DNA of 64,000 bases from a virus (taxonomy: Duplodnaviria > Caudoviricetes), in the IMG/VR virus record IMGVR_UViG_3300030117_003223, positions 509 through 64,508 of that record. The stretch is one strand, 5' to 3'. Positions 1,779 through 7,746 of the stretch are shown here, one piece after another (within the stretch, counting starts at the first letter, position 1; each line of letters begins with the position of its first letter). The position numbers and the translations under genes were made by a program. The notes beneath the pieces are model-generated. The model made no database searches. It was given only the letters and a program-made list of their open reading frames with translations, and had not been told where the DNA came from.

Positions 1779-3211
1779 TTTAGTTTTACCTTGCTAATTT
1801 CATAATCAAACTGTTCACTGTTGTAAATATTTAGTCGCTCTGTGAAGTGTCTCAACGTATAATTGTCTTTTCCTAAGTCATCAGCGATATCAAATATTAA
1901 AACTGAATCCTTACCTGATGATATACGCAACCCTCTCCCGATAGATTGGAGCACTCGTATTTTTGATTTTGATGGACTGGCGAGCACGATATTATTAATG
2001 TTGCGAATATTAATCCCAGTAGAAAAAGTACCGTAGCTTGCAATGGTAGTAGATGATATGGAGTTATCAACAATACCACGAATTTCTTCACGCTGTTCAG
2101 CGCTCGTTGCACCATAGACAAAATGGACATTTTCTTTCCCCTTCATTCCCTCATATAGAACTTTACCATGTTTCTCTACTAACTGAAACAAACATAGAGT
2201 ATTCCCATTAAGATGCTGTAAAAGATTACAGCAAAAATCAATTCTTTTTTTGTTGGTAACAATATAATCCAACTCTTCAGCATAAGTCATCTTTTCTCTA
2301 ATATTAGGATGTTTAAGAACTATACACTTTATTTTGAGATTTGCAAGTGACTTGCTTTCTATAAGTTTTTTAGTTGACGTAACTTTTTCTACAGGACCAA
2401 ACAATCCCTCCAATACAAGTCTATGTGTCTGTGTCCCATCAAGTGTGCCCGTAAATCCAAACCTGTATTTACAACCATGCAGTTTGGTCATGATTCCTGT
2501 GAGAGACTTTGCCTTAAACATATGTGCCTCGTCACCAATCACACACCCAAACTGCTCAAAGTATTTTTTGGGCATCTTATATAAAGATTGCCACGTTGAT
2601 ATCACAACATCTCTCTCTACCTTTGTTGTATATCCCTGATATACTTTCTGACAATAAGTTCTGGGTGACCATCCGTAATCTTCAAAGTCACTGTACATCT
2701 GCTCCACCAGAGAAGTGGTGGGAACCAGAATGAGTGTCTTGAGTCCTGCCATGTGGTAGTAACGAACTAATGAATATATTATAAGTGATTTACCAGATGC
2801 AGTAGGACTAAGAATGAGGGCACGATCCACTCCAACGGCATGAGAGAAAGCTTGAATTTGGTAATCTCGTACTTTGATGGATTTACCTTGCGATTTGGGT
2901 TTGAGACTTTTGATAAACCCTCTAGAGACCGTATCCACAACATTCCGCTCATTTCTTACTCCCTCTTCTAATTTATATTCTATGTTGTTATCACCACAGT
3001 ATTTTATGATGTAGTCAAGAAGTCCAACATATATCTCACCATTTGCAGGCGAGAAAAGTCTTATCTTACCATCCCAAATACGTTTACGATACATGGGCAT
3101 GAACTTAGCGCCAGGCACTTCAAACGTAAAGAACTCAGTAAGTTCACGTCGAGTAGATTCAGACATGCCATCTAGTATTAGATAGACTTCATTCTTTTTA
3201 GATATGTGCAT
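1775..3211 (-). CDS. uvsW: UvsW helicase
   Basis: WDGKIRLFS, SPTASGKS (Walker A), GDEAH, TGT, LQSIGRGLR; likely start MHISKKNEVY at 3211. Confidence 0.96.
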   Translation of the reverse strand: MHISKKNEVYLILDGMSESTRRELTEFFTFEVPGAKFMPMYRKRIWDGKIRLFSPANGEIYVGLLDYIIKYCGDNNIEYKLEEGVRNERNVVDTVSRGFIKSLKPKSQGKSIKVRDYQIQAFSHAVGVDRALILSPTASGKSLIIYSLVRYYHMAGLKTLILVPTTSLVEQMYSDFEDYGWSPRTYCQKVYQGYTTKVERDVVISTWQSLYKMPKKYFEQFGCVIGDEAHMFKAKSLTGIMTKLHGCKYRFGFTGTLDGTQTHRLVLEGLFGPVEKVTSTKKLIESKSLANLKIKCIVLKHPNIREKMTYAEELDYIVTNKKRIDFCCNLLQHLNGNTLCLFQLVEKHGKVLYEGMKGKENVHFVYGATSAEQREEIRGIVDNSISSTTIASYGTFSTGINIRNINNIVLASPSKSKIRVLQSIGRGLRISSGKDSVLIFDIADDLGKDNYTLRHFTERLNIYNSEQFDYEISKVKLK

Positions 3212-3794
3212 TTTGTAATGTGTTTGGTTCACCATATTCACCGCGAACTAATATGTTCCATGATATACTCATACGGTCCTCTGGGGTAGGGGGAACCCAA
3301 TGCATGAGCCAAGATGGAAAGATAAGTGCAGAGTTTACCTGAGATTTAAATTCCACCATACTTGAGTTGTCGGCATTTGGTGTATTTCTGGGTTTAAAAT
3401 ATGATGCACTTGGTCTTGGGTCAAAAAATTGAATTGGTGACCCGCTCTTCAAATAGTATACTCCAGATAAAATATTATTAGAGTGTGTATGGGGTGCATG
3501 AGATTCTCCCTTTTTTAATTCATTACCCCACATGTTAGTCATCTCAACACTGTCAAATTCGTACCCATCTCTTTTTAATATTTGGTCAGTCAATACCATA
3601 ATTTGATTTACAAGTGGTTTGAAAAATGATATTTTATGGAGAGTATCGTCTCTAGTAGTTGGTCCACCTTCATCCCAACCATTACAACACTTCTTAATAT
3701 AGTTTGTCATATGTTTTCTATCATACTCACTCAAATCCAGAAGCAGCACATGAATGTTTGTTGGAAAACACTTGTGTGTAATTACATCAACCAT
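3198..3794 (-). CDS. Putative 2OG-Fe(II) oxygenase (TIGR02466-like)
   Basis: HAPHTHSNNILSGVYY, FFDPRP, LIFPSWLMHWV, RMSISWN. Confidence 0.85.
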   Translation of the reverse strand: MVDVITHKCFPTNIHVLLLDLSEYDRKHMTNYIKKCCNGWDEGGPTTRDDTLHKISFFKPLVNQIMVLTDQILKRDGYEFDSVEMTNMWGNELKKGESHAPHTHSNNILSGVYYLKSGSPIQFFDPRPSASYFKPRNTPNADNSSMVEFKSQVNSALIFPSWLMHWVPPTPEDRMSISWNILVRGEYGEPNTLQNAHI

Positions 3795-4342
3795 GATACG
3801 ATACTCCATCTAGTTCCTTTTGTGACAACCTCTGCTCCATGCGGGAACATAAAATTAGATGGGAACACTACAGAAGACCTAGCTTTAGGTTTGATTCTCT
3901 TAGTCGCGACTGTAAATTCGCCTCCCTCATAATCATCGTTTAGATACAACAAAACAGTCGCGTGTGGATATCCGTAGTGTTGTCCATGACTATGATGAAT
4001 GCTATCATAATGTTTAGACATAAATCCTCCCTCTGAGTATCGGTTAATGCGAAAGTCAGTAACGTGTTGCACAGAAAAATATGGATGGTCTGCCATGTAC
4101 ATTTCTATAGAATCTATAAAACACTTTTTAAGGGGTTCATATAATTCGTGTGTATTACGAATCCAAAACTCATCCATATTTACTCGTTCATTAGAATCCT
4201 CTAAAGATAAATTACTACCATCTCTTGCAAATCCAGATTTTTCAAAATTAAGATTTGATTTCATAACCCTGTCAGATAGACTTTGGGAAACTACGTTTGT
4301 ATACACTCCAATAAACTTTGAAATATTATAATCAATGTCCAT
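3782..4342 (-). CDS. 2OG-Fe(II) oxygenase, prolyl-4-hydroxylase-like
   Basis: HYD, LLYLNDDYEGGEF, FPSNFMFPH, GTRWSIVSW. Confidence 0.88.
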   Translation of the reverse strand: MDIDYNISKFIGVYTNVVSQSLSDRVMKSNLNFEKSGFARDGSNLSLEDSNERVNMDEFWIRNTHELYEPLKKCFIDSIEMYMADHPYFSVQHVTDFRINRYSEGGFMSKHYDSIHHSHGQHYGYPHATVLLYLNDDYEGGEFTVATKRIKPKARSSVVFPSNFMFPHGAEVVTKGTRWSIVSWLM

Positions 4343-4607
4343 TATCACACACCTTTAAACATATATCTGGCCATTCGTCTTCTTTGTTCTCTATAACGTC
4401 GAAGAAATTTATCCACTCATCTGAAAATATTATCTCTTCAATTGAGTCAACGTTATCAATTTTTAGTCTCTCTTTATATAGAGAGGATATCAAACCGTGT
4501 TTGGGGTCACTCCCATCGTTGACACGGGTATAACAACAGGGTAATATATAACCTGATGGATGTTGACTTAAAGAACAATCTCGCTCAAGACACTCTGGTT
4601 TTTTCAT
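4332..4607 (-). CDS. Stand-alone SPASM/Twitch-like Fe-S domain
   Basis: C...GYILPCC...W..F...CLKVC; ATGA-coupled to the radical SAM gene. Confidence 0.7.
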   Translation of the reverse strand: MKKPECLERDCSLSQHPSGYILPCCYTRVNDGSDPKHGLISSLYKERLKIDNVDSIEEIIFSDEWINFFDVIENKEDEWPDICLKVCDNGH

Positions 4608-5155
4608 GTCGGACCACTTTTAAAAGTTCTGGGTTCTCTAGTTAAAAAGGTCATACCCTTTGATAACGACTTAGCTTCTTTAATATGGTCTTTATTATAA
4701 TCAAACACTAGGTATTGCCACACCACGTTCATCCCCATATCAACAGCCATCTTCATTACTTCAAAAAGTTTTACACCATCTTGATTAACTCTGTACTTAT
4801 GACTCTCCTCTGGTAGTCCATCTAAACCAAAATACCAAGTTGCATTTGGGTTAGCATTGAACGCTTTAACATACCAATCCATACTTTTATGAGAGGCAGC
4901 ATTGTGAACTGTAACCACTTTATTTTTGCAGTAGTTTAAAAACTCAATAAATTTTGGATGAAATACAGGGTCAGATACACCACCACAAAATTCTAACCCA
5001 TCAAAAAAATTACAGACCTTTACAAAATCCTCAAAGGGCATATCCTGACCATGTATATGCCAACCAAGATTTTTATAAATGGTTCTTCTACACTCTGGAC
5101 ATGCAAGGGTGCATCTTGTAGTTATGTCAAGATTTATTTTTCGGCGGTCAATCAT
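4604..5155 (-). CDS. Radical SAM protein (no fused SPASM)
   Basis: CTLACPEC (CxxxCxxC), CGGVSDP, FGLDGL, WQYLVFDYN. Confidence 0.88.
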   Translation of the reverse strand: MIDRRKINLDITTRCTLACPECRRTIYKNLGWHIHGQDMPFEDFVKVCNFFDGLEFCGGVSDPVFHPKFIEFLNYCKNKVVTVHNAASHKSMDWYVKAFNANPNATWYFGLDGLPEESHKYRVNQDGVKLFEVMKMAVDMGMNVVWQYLVFDYNKDHIKEAKSLSKGMTFLTREPRTFKSGPT

Positions 5156-5159
5156 AAAC

Positions 5160-5591
5160 TTAGATCATTCCTGCCTCAAACTTCTTCCAATCAGTTGCGT
5201 TACGAATGTCCCACCCACGATTATCAATAGACTTAATAACGCCCTTACAATAATCTACACATGACTCAAAATATCCAATCTTATTTTGTATTCGTAGGAT
5301 ATCATCATCTGACTGTATGTACATCTGTAAGTCTGTCTTCATAACTTTTATGTCGAATGGTTTCGCGGCATAGACCTTTGCATCTGCCTTACCACCATAG
5401 TACTCCCACTTCTCACGGTACATCTGTTGGTGGTCTGTTCTCGCTTTGATAAGTAACAGTTCAAACTCAGATTTCAAGTCTAACCATTTTTGTTTAATCA
5501 TTTGATTCTTGAAAGATTCCTGATCTATATGTTCTTGATCAGTTATTGGTAGGTCTTCTTTTGCAATTTGTTTTAGAGTTTCTAAATCCAT
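5160..5591 (-). CDS. uvsY: UvsY recombination mediator
   Basis: KWEYYGGKADAKVY..KPFD, IDNRGWDIRNATDW; upstream of uvsW. Confidence 0.92.
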   Translation of the reverse strand: MDLETLKQIAKEDLPITDQEHIDQESFKNQMIKQKWLDLKSEFELLLIKARTDHQQMYREKWEYYGGKADAKVYAAKPFDIKVMKTDLQMYIQSDDDILRIQNKIGYFESCVDYCKGVIKSIDNRGWDIRNATDWKKFEAGMI

Positions 5592-5605
5592 TATATCTCC
5601 ATGAT

Positions 5606-5726
5606 AAAAAAAGTGAGCAGAGTTGATTACTCTCCTTGTGTATATTGACCCTAGTGAGGCTGCCGAGTAGTCACTAGATAATTAAGTCTCAGATTTAATA
5701 AATGTTAAAGTTTATCGCATCTGCTC
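5606..5726 (-). ncRNA. Candidate structured late small RNA or structured uvsY leader
   Basis: TATAAATA directly upstream; GAGCAGA pairs with TCTGCTC, then U7; internal CTAGTGA/TCACTAG stem; no convincing ORF. Confidence 0.5.
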
Positions 5727-5731
5727 GTTTC

Positions 5732-5739
5732 TATTTATA
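5732..5739 (-). promoter_or_regulatory. T4-type late promoter
   Basis: TATAAATA. Confidence 0.75.
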
Positions 5740-6330
5740 TTAACTAATCGCTTCAATCTCATAAATTGAATATGCAAAAGTTGCGCTAACTGAAACATAC
5801 TCAACGTCCGTAGCTGCTTGAGTAAAATCCAATGCGTCTAGAGAGGTGGGATATAAGTCACGAAAGAAAACGTTAGCAACAGGATTGTTTTTATTTGAAA
5901 GAATTGTTAGAGACGCATCAGAGAACATTCCTCTCACGGCGGTTGCTGGTTGCACGTCACCGATATCTGTGCTTGTGCCTACTGTCGTAGATGGTGTTGC
6001 AGATGTAGTTGTACGAAAGTTTTTAAACTGATCTGTACTTTTTGGGAAACCAATCGCAGTAATCCACTCATGTATAGATAGATAGTTTTCTAAAAATTCA
6101 TCACAAATAAATGATATCTGCAATGGGTCAAACGTAACTTTGTCTCCCATCATTGGTAGGTCAACAAGTCTTGTTGGTGAAAATGAATTACCCATGCTGA
6201 TGGATGGAACCTGTGCAGACACAGTAAAAAACTCCACCTTTGGAAGTTGGTGAATATTAAACTTAAACTGTGTTGGACTCAGATAGTCTAATTTATCAGG
6301 TTGTCGTTCTATTGCTGCGGTTATTGCCAT
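5740..6330 (-). CDS. gp3: Tail completion / sheath stabilizer
   Basis: YLSPTQFKF..LPKVEFF, DEFLENYLSIHEW, SDASLTIL, F.DLYPTSL; follows gp23; start corrected to ATG 6330. Confidence 0.85.
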   Translation of the reverse strand: MAITAAIERQPDKLDYLSPTQFKFNIHQLPKVEFFTVSAQVPSISMGNSFSPTRLVDLPMMGDKVTFDPLQISFICDEFLENYLSIHEWITAIGFPKSTDQFKNFRTTTSATPSTTVGTSTDIGDVQPATAVRGMFSDASLTILSNKNNPVANVFFRDLYPTSLDALDFTQAATDVEYVSVSATFAYSIYEIEAIS

Positions 6331-6335
6331 AATAG

Positions 6336-6343
6336 TATTTATA
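6336..6343 (-). promoter_or_regulatory. T4-type late promoter for gp3
   Basis: TATAAATA 5 nt before the ATG. Confidence 0.75.
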
Positions 6344-6345
6344 AG

Positions 6346-6374
6346 AAAAAGGGAGTGCCCTTTCGGACACTCCC
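6346..6374 (-). terminator. Intrinsic terminator after gp23
   Basis: GGGAGTGTCC-GAAA-GGGCACTCCC followed by TTTTT. Confidence 0.9.
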
Positions 6375-6405
6375 CAAGTTTCCCCACAAACTTTTTTTGT
6401 TATTA

Positions 6406-7746
6406 TTACATAAGGTTTGTGACTTTAACGCGACGATACCAAGCGTTGGTGTTTGCATCCAGTGAAGCATCGGTGTTAACCGTATCACCAGCAGAAACCG
6501 CTCCGGCAGCAGCAAACGGGTTTGCAGCCATTCCGTAACGGGTTTTGAAACCAATCTTGGGCTGGAAGGAATTCTCACCAACCGCACGGACCATTTGCAG
6601 AGGTACGTATGGGCAGTAGAAGAAACCAGCATCATAAGGAGAAGTACCCTTATAACCGCAAACGTAGTACTGAGAAGCAGCAACGTTAGCAGAATACGGG
6701 TCAACGTATACCTTATAACGACCATTCATCACACCAGCGAATGTATTCGCAGTGTCATCAACGTTCAGTGAGTTGTTGAGAGCAGGCGTGTAATCAAGAA
6801 CACCAGCCATCTGAAGTGCAGAAGCAACATCAGCGGAGCAGATGATCATGTTACCCTTACCGCGACGAGTCTGTTGACCAATCGCATTGGCATCACGCTC
6901 AATCTGGAACATCAGACCCTTGAACTTCTCAACTGACCAACGTCCGTTGGAGTCTGTGTCAAGGTCAAAGATACCAGCAGTTGTCGTATTAACCTGAGCA
7001 CCTTTAACAGCGGTGACATACAGGGAACGAATAACTTCACGGTTGATTTCAGCAAGGATTTCTGTGGACAGAATGTTGCTGAGTTCTGTCTCGGCATCAA
7101 GACCGTGAATTGCTTTAAGGTCTTGTGCGAGTTCCATCGTGTACTCTGCCTTGAGTGCGCGAGACACGGCGGTAACCGTGGATTTTTCGATTGAGAACGC
7201 CATCTGTGCGAAAGCGTTACTACCACTGTCACCAAGTGCTTCCGCCTCAGAACGTGTCATACCTGTGGCACTTACATACGTACCAGCAGAAGGACTGTCG
7301 TTCAGAACGGCAGGGTTGGTTTCCGTAGCACCAACATCACCACCACCGATTGTACCGGCAGCGTTCTGGTTGGAGATATCGGGCATCGCTTCGTCAACGA
7401 GGGCTTCCGCACCATCCTGAGATGTGAATGAAGAACGCATCGCGAAGATTAGACCCGTTGGACCTGTCATCGGCTGCACACCACATACGTCATACGCAAT
7501 CAGGTTAGGCATTGCACGACGAACTAGGGAAATAAGAATTGGATCCCATGTGTCCAACTGTCCACCACCCATGCTGTTGACAGGAGCGGCTTCAGATAAG
7601 AAAGCAGCGTCTTCTTTAGACGCCTTCTCTTGGTTTTCTAGAATAAGAGTTGTAACGGCGCGCTTGTAGGAATCCTCAATCTTGGGAAGATCAGGATGCT
7701 CAAGAACTGGTTGCCACTTCTCTTGTAGATGTTCTGTTTGAAACAT
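6406..7746 (-). CDS. gp23: Major capsid protein
   Basis: LISLVRRAMPNLIAYDVCGVQPMTGPTGLIFAMR, FYCPYVPLQ, FQPKIGFKTRYG. Confidence 0.98.
   Translation of the reverse strand: MFQTEHLQEKWQPVLEHPDLPKIEDSYKRAVTTLILENQEKASKEDAAFLSEAAPVNSMGGGQLDTWDPILISLVRRAMPNLIAYDVCGVQPMTGPTGLIFAMRSSFTSQDGAEALVDEAMPDISNQNAAGTIGGGDVGATETNPAVLNDSPSAGTYVSATGMTRSEAEALGDSGSNAFAQMAFSIEKSTVTAVSRALKAEYTMELAQDLKAIHGLDAETELSNILSTEILAEINREVIRSLYVTAVKGAQVNTTTAGIFDLDTDSNGRWSVEKFKGLMFQIERDANAIGQQTRRGKGNMIICSADVASALQMAGVLDYTPALNNSLNVDDTANTFAGVMNGRYKVYVDPYSANVAASQYYVCGYKGTSPYDAGFFYCPYVPLQMVRAVGENSFQPKIGFKTRYGMAANPFAAAGAVSAGDTVNTDASLDANTNAWYRRVKVTNLM

Follow-up and report, generated by a model that had tools for sequence, protein, structure and literature searches.

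Comparison of relatives points to a new structured RNA family at the virion/recombination gene border of marine T4-like phages

What lies in the non-coding space between a tail gene and a recombination gene of a T4-like phage? The question is raised by a 64,000-nucleotide stretch of phage DNA, here called the window (Caudoviricetes; positions 509 to 64,508 of the IMG/VR record IMGVR_UViG_3300030117_003223). A gene resembling gp3 is separated there from uvsY by 148 nt. A first-pass annotation, made from the window alone, proposed that this gap encodes a structured late RNA with paired ends. Very probably the gap encodes, on the gene strand, one representative of a structured RNA family that is new and that stands where a late transcription unit begins, at the border between virion and recombination genes. 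Judged from the contigs that carry it, the family belongs to marine T4-like phages around the Methylophilales phage Melnitz. Late expression of the genes downstream is probably under the control of the element, or accompanied by it. All sequence features named in the first-pass annotation lie where it had placed them, and the RNA itself, structured, conserved, on the gene strand and adjoining a late-promoter motif, is borne out by relatives. The gap and the parts of the element are listed here in window coordinates.

5739-5592, minus strand: gap of 148 nt between the gp3-like stop and the uvsY start (the gp3-like open reading frame (ORF) ends at 5740, uvsY begins at 5591)
5739-5732, minus strand: T4-type late-promoter box TATAAATA, directly 3' of the gp3-like stop codon (read from the sequence)
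5726-5720, minus strand: 5' strand of the closing helix P1, GAGCAG(A); inferred 5' end of the late transcript; 100% of cells paired
5711-5719, minus strand: segment S (UGCGAUAAA), a strand with two alternative partners (alignments and constrained folds)
5703-5710, minus strand: CUUUAACA, invariant in the comparison of relatives
5691-5702, minus strand: segment L (UUUAUUAAAUCU), local partner of S; S and L form hairpin P2, with CUUUAACA in the loop
5647-5688, minus strand: hairpin P3 with a 13-nt loop (covariation in relatives)
5688-5685 with 5650-5647, minus strand: outer stem of P3, GACU with GGUC
5677-5671 with 5657-5651, minus strand: inner stem of P3, CUAGUGA with UCACUAG, absent in short-form relatives
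5641-5646, minus strand: AAUAUA, conserved unpaired stretch 3' of P3 (alignment columns 120-122 nearly invariant)
5639-5630, minus strand: purine run ACAAGGAGAG (read from the sequence)
5629-5633, minus strand: AGAGU, potential partner of ACUUU (5711-5707), which would form helix P1c of the extended fold
5625-5627, minus strand: segment T (AUC), distal partner of GAU in S, forming helix P1b
5615-5621, minus strand: 3' strand of P1, (U)CUGCUC
5612-5606, minus strand: U7 run, 2 nt (AC) after P1; candidate leaky or conditional terminator

By itself, the window sequence folds no better than shuffled sequences. The 148-nt gap reaches -25.3 kcal/mol (z = -1.04), a value equalled by 29 of 200 shuffles; the putative 121-nt transcript has z = -1.69, equalled by 12 of 200. 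It is by comparison with relatives that the conserved closing helix and P3 emerge, on the alignments, as more than chance. Searches of GenBank phages at the nucleotide level were almost empty: blastn of the region gave only a short uvsY match to two cyanophages, blastn of the window element gave no match, and blastn of the Melnitz element found four Melnitz isolates only. The UvsY protein was therefore used as the query, which yielded a first set of 80 viral-contig loci with UvsY 69-93% identical. In 71 of the 77 loci with a complete UvsY N-terminus and 260 nt or more of upstream sequence, the element immediately precedes uvsY, as 37 distinct sequences. A covariance model (R1) built from the first-set sequences matches the window exactly once, at 5614-5727 on the minus strand with 96.9 bits, and the 64.5-kb viral record from which the window comes likewise has a single R1 match. 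In a second set chosen through UvsY, 71 of 80 loci have a covariance-model match at E <= 0.001. The nine others comprise two with less than 40 nt of upstream sequence; one on the contig of L049, whose element is too far upstream to fall within the flank fetched; two (L374, L378) with a variant closed by the helix GUGCA/UGCAC; three (L385, L390, L393) in which a sigma-70-like promoter (TTGACA, 17 nt, TATAAT) replaces the element; and one with a different gene upstream.

In the cultured phage Melnitz, a shorter version (32 bits, E 1.4e-6) separates the gp3-like gene from uvsY and is the only copy in the genome. The Pelagibacter phages Mosig and HTVC008M have no model match, either at the locus or in the whole genome. 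A pattern of closing helix plus CTTTAACA occurs in 117 stretches of viral contigs. The 80 loci examined represent 50 distinct sequences, 41 of which have TATAAATA before and a uvsY-like start after the element; the other nine lack the box, seemingly lie in coding sequence and were set aside as chance matches. With the promoter box added, the pattern occurs in at least 120 viral stretches. Twelve further family sequences and the divergent L259 are among the matches listed; four more matches were dropped as chance. The bacterial and archaeal genome collection contains the same pattern in 43 places, against a rough chance estimate of about 45 for its 20 fixed bases, and the model confirms just one of these, on a 5.6-kb contig binned into a metagenome-assembled genome (MAG). 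The element is thus a feature of phages, with no host copy. The confirmed match (L240, 3635-3748, 100.1 bits) is of the window type and comes from a 'Vicingus sp.' MAG; the contig is probably a phage contig caught by binning, and the host assignment is too weak to use.

The final family set holds 88 distinct sequences from 153 loci, drawn from marine viral contigs and Melnitz. Each record carries a single copy on one strand only, and the phages sharing it have UvsY proteins down to 41-78% identical. Only sequences with a TAAATA or TATATA box were admitted to this set; the spacing from box to P1 was not filtered. CUUUAACA was part of the search pattern in the later sets; the 38 distinct sequences found through UvsY homology alone are free of that selection, and CUUUAACA is identical in all of them. 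Counts below are from alignment A6 (82 sequences aligned to the model) unless stated otherwise; alignment A3 contained antisense matches and was kept out of the counts.

The element appears in no catalogue consulted. No Rfam family reaches the gathering threshold anywhere in the 64-kb window, no Rfam 15 match falls inside the gap at E <= 10 (window 5000-6500), and the element of five related loci has none at E <= 5. The covariance models thus agree with the first-pass annotation, which had been unable to place the RNA in a family by eye; its suggestion of a Y-RNA-like molecule finds no Rfam match at E up to 10. The literature search found no description of the element in the available text of PMC9004378, PMC7029224 and PMC3014915 or elsewhere, supplementary motif lists being outside its scope. 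In the accessible part of the Melnitz paper (PMC9004378), the word 'uvsY' occurs 0 times and the gap goes unmentioned. On these searches the family is previously uncatalogued. There is no conserved ORF in the element: the longest complete sense ORF is at most 17 amino acids in 87 of 88 sequences and absent in 15, and the six longest ORFs printed start with TTG or GTG and are unconserved.

Pairing is retained across the family while sequence changes. In the first 38 sequences, 96.6% of the cells of P1, P2 and P3 are paired, compared with 29-40% when partners are slid, and four pairs change on both sides. In A6, the combination of P1, P1b, P1c and P3 (fold X) has 94.0% of cells paired against 31-49% for slid partners; twelve pairs change on both sides, and the covariation score is reached by none of 500 shuffles. 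The fold that contains P2 (fold Y) has 90.1% of cells paired and 19 pairs changing on both sides, among them nine of the ten pairs of P2. P1 is 100% paired, and its compensatory changes include GAACAG/CUGUUC in L064 and GUGCA/UGCAC in L374 and L378 (the latter by eye). P3 varies in composition. Its outer pair 54/115 is A-U in 55 sequences and U-A in 25; of the inner pairs, 66/110 has G-C in 24 and A-U in 19, and 67/109 has G-C in 21, G-U in 15 and A-U in 9. In the short forms of the element, P3 reads GUC/GAC, GACUU/AAGUC, AUCUC/GGGAU or CACAA/UUGUG, so that its sequence is wholly changed and its pairing retained. The four CUUU:AGAG pairs of P1c are paired in 98.8% of cells, with variation on one side only. 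The first-pass annotation had pointed to conservation and covariation in relatives as the check on its proposal; both are found, and the closing helix and the CTAGTGA/TCACTAG stem it described are kept with compensatory changes. Covariation is joined by conserved unpaired bases, the combination that marks a conserved aptamer-like fold.

The pairs also bear on the strand. G-U pairs are frequent (U-G at pair 26/135 in 75 of 82 sequences), and antisense copies score poorly with the model (L088: 16.9 bits antisense, 64.0 sense). Together these point to an RNA read on the gene strand.

Segment S stands out within this structure, since the alignments show it to have two covarying, mutually exclusive partners. 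In fold Y it pairs with the neighbouring segment L as hairpin P2, leaving CUUUAACA in the loop. In fold X it pairs with the distant segment T (P1b), CUUU pairs with AGAG (P1c), and the closing helix grows into a long rod with interruptions, roughly 14-20 bp of helix broken by internal loops (as in L247, L124 and L271). For the window, the GAU of S (5716-5714) could pair either with UUU/AUU of L or with AUC at 5627-5625. P1b occurs as GAU/AUC, GGU/ACC, GGAU/AUCC and GUGAU/AUCAC, and P1c of the Melnitz type reads GAACUUU/AAAGUUC. Pair 15/147 is A-U in 38 sequences, G-C in 35 and G-U in 8; counts from constrained folds anchored at the 5' end give, for the pair of S(-5) with T, A-U in 44, G-C in 42 and U-A in 2 of 88. 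Between L247 and L271, a change in S from UUUGAU to UAUGAU is matched in both L and T (by eye). Fold X dominates the predicted ensembles of 40 of the 88 sequences and fold Y those of 10; the other 38 are mixed. By energy, X is the more stable fold for 84 of the 88, and for 39 the difference between the two is within 2 kcal/mol. The minimum free energy (MFE) fold of the window is fold Y; P2 there reaches into the CAG of P1, and the closing helix is not formed.

Two proposals of the first-pass annotation look different against these folds. Its TTTAA/TTAAA hairpin, whose two halves both occur in the gap, would use invariant CUUUAACA bases, and TTAAA is absent from the largest related group, which has ATCAAATCT there; as drawn, the hairpin is not supported. 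The purine run ACAAGGAGAG, which it took as probably unpaired, is so in part, but AGAG can pair with the CUUU of CUUUAACA. The idea that the run acts as a sponge, whether of an anti-Shine-Dalgarno RNA or of a protein that binds GGA, does not fit the family: column 132 is G in only six of 82 sequences, most members read AGAGAG, and the run has a conserved internal partner. Sponges of the CsrA/RsmA type carry several conserved GGA motifs, as a rule in loops, and the element does not show this feature.

From 5' to 3', the family architecture is promoter box, spacer, GAGCAG, S (about 10 nt), CUUUAACA, L, P3, AAUAUA, a variable linker, AGAG, T and CUGCUC. Among the 88 sequences the box is TATAAATA in 67, TCTAAATA in 19 and TATATATA in 2. 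The spacer between box and P1 is variable and A/T-rich in sequence and nearly constant in length: 79 of the 88 sequences have 5 nt, five have 4 nt and four have 6 nt. According to the available part of PMC2988020, a T4 late promoter consists of an 8-bp TATA box that precedes the start by about one helical turn and has an AT-rich segment after it. The window box and the family spacing agree with that description. With a late box 5 nt upstream of P1, the first base of P1 or a neighbouring one would be the start of a late transcript; we infer a start there, or within a base or two, in most members. The element would then be the 5' leader of a late transcript running into uvsY or an inserted gene.

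The family falls into long and short forms. Long forms, which include the window, have P3 lengthened by the CUAGUGA/UCACUAG stem; short forms have a P3 of 3-6 bp. A T-run of at least six within 14 nt after P1 is found in 39 of 46 long forms and in 6 of 42 short forms, and the longest T-run is at most three in 21 of the 42 short forms. The putative terminator of the window consists of the 7-bp helix (4 G-C pairs), AC and U7, enclosing a 'loop' of about 100 nt; an intrinsic terminator typically has a G+C-rich stem, a short loop and a U-run straight after the stem. A scan for consensus promoters and terminators makes no call within the gap; it missed the site because its loop limit is 8 nt. Among 18 cluster representatives, the next ORF starts 10-41 nt after P1. 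Pairing of segment L with the downstream ribosome-binding site was considered for the window (a 10-bp match with one mismatch, by eye) and dropped: the start region is unpaired with the element in MFE folds of those representatives. In L001-type loci, the largest group, the uvsY Shine-Dalgarno sequence lies inside a two-codon mini-ORF (AUG AGG UAA), which ends 3-4 nt before the uvsY AUG.

The position of the element is fixed on its 5' side. It adjoins the gp3-like 3' end in all loci with gp3 in view. Three ORFs separate it from uvsY in L049 and L080: a 456-amino-acid ORF of no Pfam or PHROG family, a 74-amino-acid ORF and a 164-amino-acid PHROG 274 protein ('DNA endonuclease V'). In L040 the insert encodes a 204-amino-acid 2OG-Fe(II) oxygenase. 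The inserted genes occupy 403-2501 in L049 and 116-730 in L040. The element still lies immediately 3' of the gp3 stop and the TATAAATA box in loci with inserts, and the first inserted gene (L049, L040) follows directly behind it with its own Shine-Dalgarno sequence. The genes downstream thus vary: uvsY, a 2OG-Fe(II) oxygenase or an ORF of no assigned family. Because the element stays at gp3 when genes are inserted, it belongs to the gp3 end and its late promoter, not to uvsY itself. On these comparisons, the position right after the element is a hot spot at which relatives have gained genes.

Promoters near uvsY differ between lineages. A sigma-70-like promoter (TTGACA, 17 nt, TAATAT or TAAGAT) lies between element and uvsY in L077, L108, L121, L123 and L138. 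Apart from L077, none was seen by eye between the element and the next ORF in the 18 representatives, where no promoter scan was run. In L385, L390 and L393, which lack the element, the sigma-70-like promoter stands about 50 nt upstream of uvsY. This distribution suggests that lineages differ in whether uvsY has an early promoter of its own. In L077-type phages, the element would be present on late uvsY transcripts alone and missing from the early ones.

How might such an RNA act? The mechanism we put forward, tentatively and at a little under an even chance, is a two-state leader or attenuator of late transcripts. (i) Fold Y would form first during transcription. (ii) AGAG would then seed on the exposed CUUU loop, after which T would displace L to give fold X. 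(iii) In the window clade, the rod of fold X would end 2 nt before U7 and favour termination, releasing an RNA of about 121 nt. (iv) Fold Y would favour read-through into uvsY. (v) A protein or small molecule on the invariant unpaired bases could set the balance of X and Y. The first-pass annotation had listed an attenuator for uvsY among its options. That idea is viable in the window clade, given the T-run of 39 of the 46 long forms, but the element is tied to gp3 and not to uvsY. Likewise, its RNA of about 120 nt is sound as regards the paired ends, but a discrete terminated form is not general to the family, many short forms having no U-run.

Several observations weigh against a two-state leader, or against the evidence for it. 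The U-run is not family-wide, so that termination control cannot be the general mechanism; nor is translational control evident, the ribosome-binding site being unpaired with the element in MFE folds of leader and start region. The 19 TCTAAATA boxes among 88 are a weaker promoter match and overlap the gp3 stop; the RNA of those phages may exist solely as an inner part of some longer transcript. L077-type phages can, from their promoters, express uvsY without the leader, and replacement by a promoter in L385, L390 and L393 makes the element dispensable. The S:L and S:T helices are seldom more stable than shuffles, with z < -2 in just 8% (S:L) and 17% (S:T); for A/U-rich 10-mers, duplex energies against shuffles are too weak to decide. 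Counts from the constrained folds, and the fold-Y counts from A6, an alignment fitted to fold Y, lean towards pairing; P2 does not keep a constant register to CUUUAACA from one subgroup to another (by eye). Seven rows of A6 have a one-helix register shift in P1, which inflates the P1 double-change counts. Family sequences are related, and cell counts are not independent events. The sole RNA run with part of the stretch consists of oligo-dT contigs whose thin, patchy cover is uninformative on starts, ends and strand.

Other explanations account for part of the same evidence. The transcription-unit layout (box 5 nt before P1 in 79 of 88, U-run of at least six in 39 of 46 long forms) would suit a stand-alone late small RNA of about 121 nt (5726-5606) acting in trans, its unpaired bases binding a host or phage target and uvsY being reached by leakage. 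P1 would join both ends of such an RNA, its unpaired stretches are strongly conserved in sequence, the element is in place whatever gene follows, and L077-type phages have a separate uvsY promoter downstream of it. However, most short forms are without a U-run (longest T-run at most 3 in 21 of 42) and meet the next ORF within 10-41 nt, so that no discrete 3' end is encoded in these phages. A closing helix around a multi-branched interior of about 100 nt would also be an unusual terminator, one on which the consensus scan makes no call, and the trans target is putative only, none being known; bacterial copies are lacking (one of 43 matches model-confirmed, on the 5.6-kb contig). A trans-acting RNA is on balance rather unlikely, and it could be reconciled with attenuation should the terminated product itself act in trans. 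More ambitious, and in our estimate unlikely, is a riboswitch-like or protein-operated sensor: through the invariant CUUUAACA, AAUAUA and AGAG, it would sense late in infection what state the cell is in, and would control whether transcription passes from the structural-gene block into the genes of recombination and repair (uvsY, uvsW and repair genes inserted there), the CUUU loop serving as the toehold when the folds exchange strands.

Anchoring at the gp3-like 3' end in all loci with gp3 in view is also what an element of mRNA processing or stability at the structural/recombination border would show, whether an RNase III-type site, a 3' protection of gp23-gp3 messages or a 5' protective stem. 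The extended fold offers the helix of about 14-20 bp interrupted by internal loops, and the TCTAAATA-box elements (19 of 88) may lie inside a longer transcript. Such a role has no need of an invariant 8-nt CUUUAACA, of AAUAUA or of two covarying partners for one strand; a canonical terminator already stands after gp23 (6375-6350), and the constant 5-nt distance from the box is left unexplained. We consider it distinctly unlikely. At T4 ori(uvsY), replication is primed by a transcript that comes from a promoter upstream of uvsY and remains hybridised. The promoter-adjacent position directly upstream of uvsY parallels that origin, and the element is AT-rich, conserved and present in a single copy per genome, so that a priming RNA or a DNA-level element such as an origin or a protein-binding site was considered. 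It appears very unlikely: covariation retains RNA-type pairs, many of them G-U, which are A-C mismatches on the opposite strand; the element follows gp3 and not uvsY when the two are separated; it is absent in close relatives; and a late-type promoter would be unlikely for an early-replication origin. The chance that the stretch has no function, being conserved through kinship alone with chance stems, is close to negligible. The single-sequence z values (-1.04, -1.69) and the many close relatives in the set are what it would predict, but the element is kept between phages whose UvsY is only 41-78% identical, P3 changes wholly in sequence and length with pairing retained, and slid-partner controls fall from 94% to 31-49% paired.

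Few phage-encoded regulatory RNAs are known. The element resembles established systems in part. Like attenuators and riboswitch platforms, it has one strand with two mutually exclusive partners, and in the window clade a long helix 2 nt before U7 ahead of a gene; like riboswitch aptamers, it has conserved unpaired bases. Unlike in attenuators, the shared strand is the 5'-most (1:2 against 1:3, rather than 2:3 against 3:4), the 'terminator' encloses the whole element, and the U-run is missing in most short forms. Nor is a ligand, leader peptide or binding protein known for it, and no Rfam riboswitch or leader matches. The intercistronic RNase III sites of T7 are interrupted long helices, at which a cut could define message ends. 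The element shares with them an interrupted long helix between phage cistrons; the T7 sites are not known to have invariant loop motifs or an alternative partner. Y RNA and bacterial Y-like RNAs also have 5' and 3' ends paired in a stem around a large interior. Y RNAs are recognised by a Ro-binding helix motif and a neighbouring Ro (rsr) gene; the element is without a match to them in Rfam. The pseudoknot operator of T4 gene 32 is a translation-controlling leader structure. For T4 genes 25 and 38, the available part of PMC3014915 describes mRNA structures near the start region that control translation. The element resembles these T4 leaders as a structured RNA just downstream of a TATAAATA late promoter and before a gene of DNA metabolism. 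The T4 structures lie at or next to the ribosome-binding site, whereas the start region behind the element is predicted free, and the two share no sequence or model similarity. The glutamine (glnA) riboswitch of Melnitz-like phages, as described in the accessible text of PMC9004378, is a structured regulatory RNA of the same phage group; it differs in adjoining the phage tmRNA gene and in its family.

The genes around the element in the window are all on the minus strand, in the order Gp23, terminator, gp3-like gene, gap and uvsY:

7746-6406, minus strand: Gp23 major capsid gene (Pfam PF07068, E 4.7e-144)
6375-6350, minus strand: canonical intrinsic terminator, hairpin and T-run (consensus terminator scan)
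6387-5740, minus strand: gp3-like tail gene (PHROG 45 'tail tube', E 5.3e-32)
5589-5600, minus strand: GGAG Shine-Dalgarno sequence (5600-5597) and uvsY start codon (5591-5589), read from the sequence
5591-5160, minus strand: uvsY (Pfam PF11056, E 4.3e-32)

In relatives, the gp3-like gene is annotated as a tail completion protein. The terminator at 6350-6375 has an 11-bp stem with 7 G-C pairs, a GAAA loop and a T-run. It stands directly 3' of the Gp23 gene, overlaps the annotated start region of the gp3-like ORF and may set the ratio of capsid to downstream message. The region 3' of uvsY (3198-5155, minus strand) encodes a radical-SAM-like ORF of 183 amino acids, under the Pfam cut-off, a separate 91-amino-acid SPASM-domain ORF (such a separation is unusual) and two 2OG-Fe(II) oxygenases of 188 and 203 amino acids; in relatives such as L040, uvsW follows uvsY directly instead. 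No tRNA gene is found in the 64-kb window. For Melnitz, tRNAs, a tmRNA and the glutamine riboswitch are reported in the accessible part of PMC9004378. The window record is about 35% complete by estimate, and tRNAs, tmRNA and riboswitch may lie outside the window. The stretch occurs in 20 sequencing runs, which are marine or seawater metagenomes except for one under a coded organism label.

The element is noteworthy for its wide distribution (at least 120 viral contigs by a strict pattern), its clear covariation and its fixed distance from a late box at the virion/recombination border. The alignment provides a new seed for RNA-family databases, and the Melnitz copy makes a cultured system accessible for bench work. 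The family offers a testable case of RNA-level control of late genes in T4-like phages that lack the T4 middle-mode regulators. Some of the most abundant bacteria of the sea are hosts to phages of this group: OM43 in the case of Melnitz, SAR11 in that of its relatives. If the unpaired bases did act as a sensor of the infected cell, the element would represent a class of regulatory RNA specific to abundant marine phages of streamlined heterotrophs.

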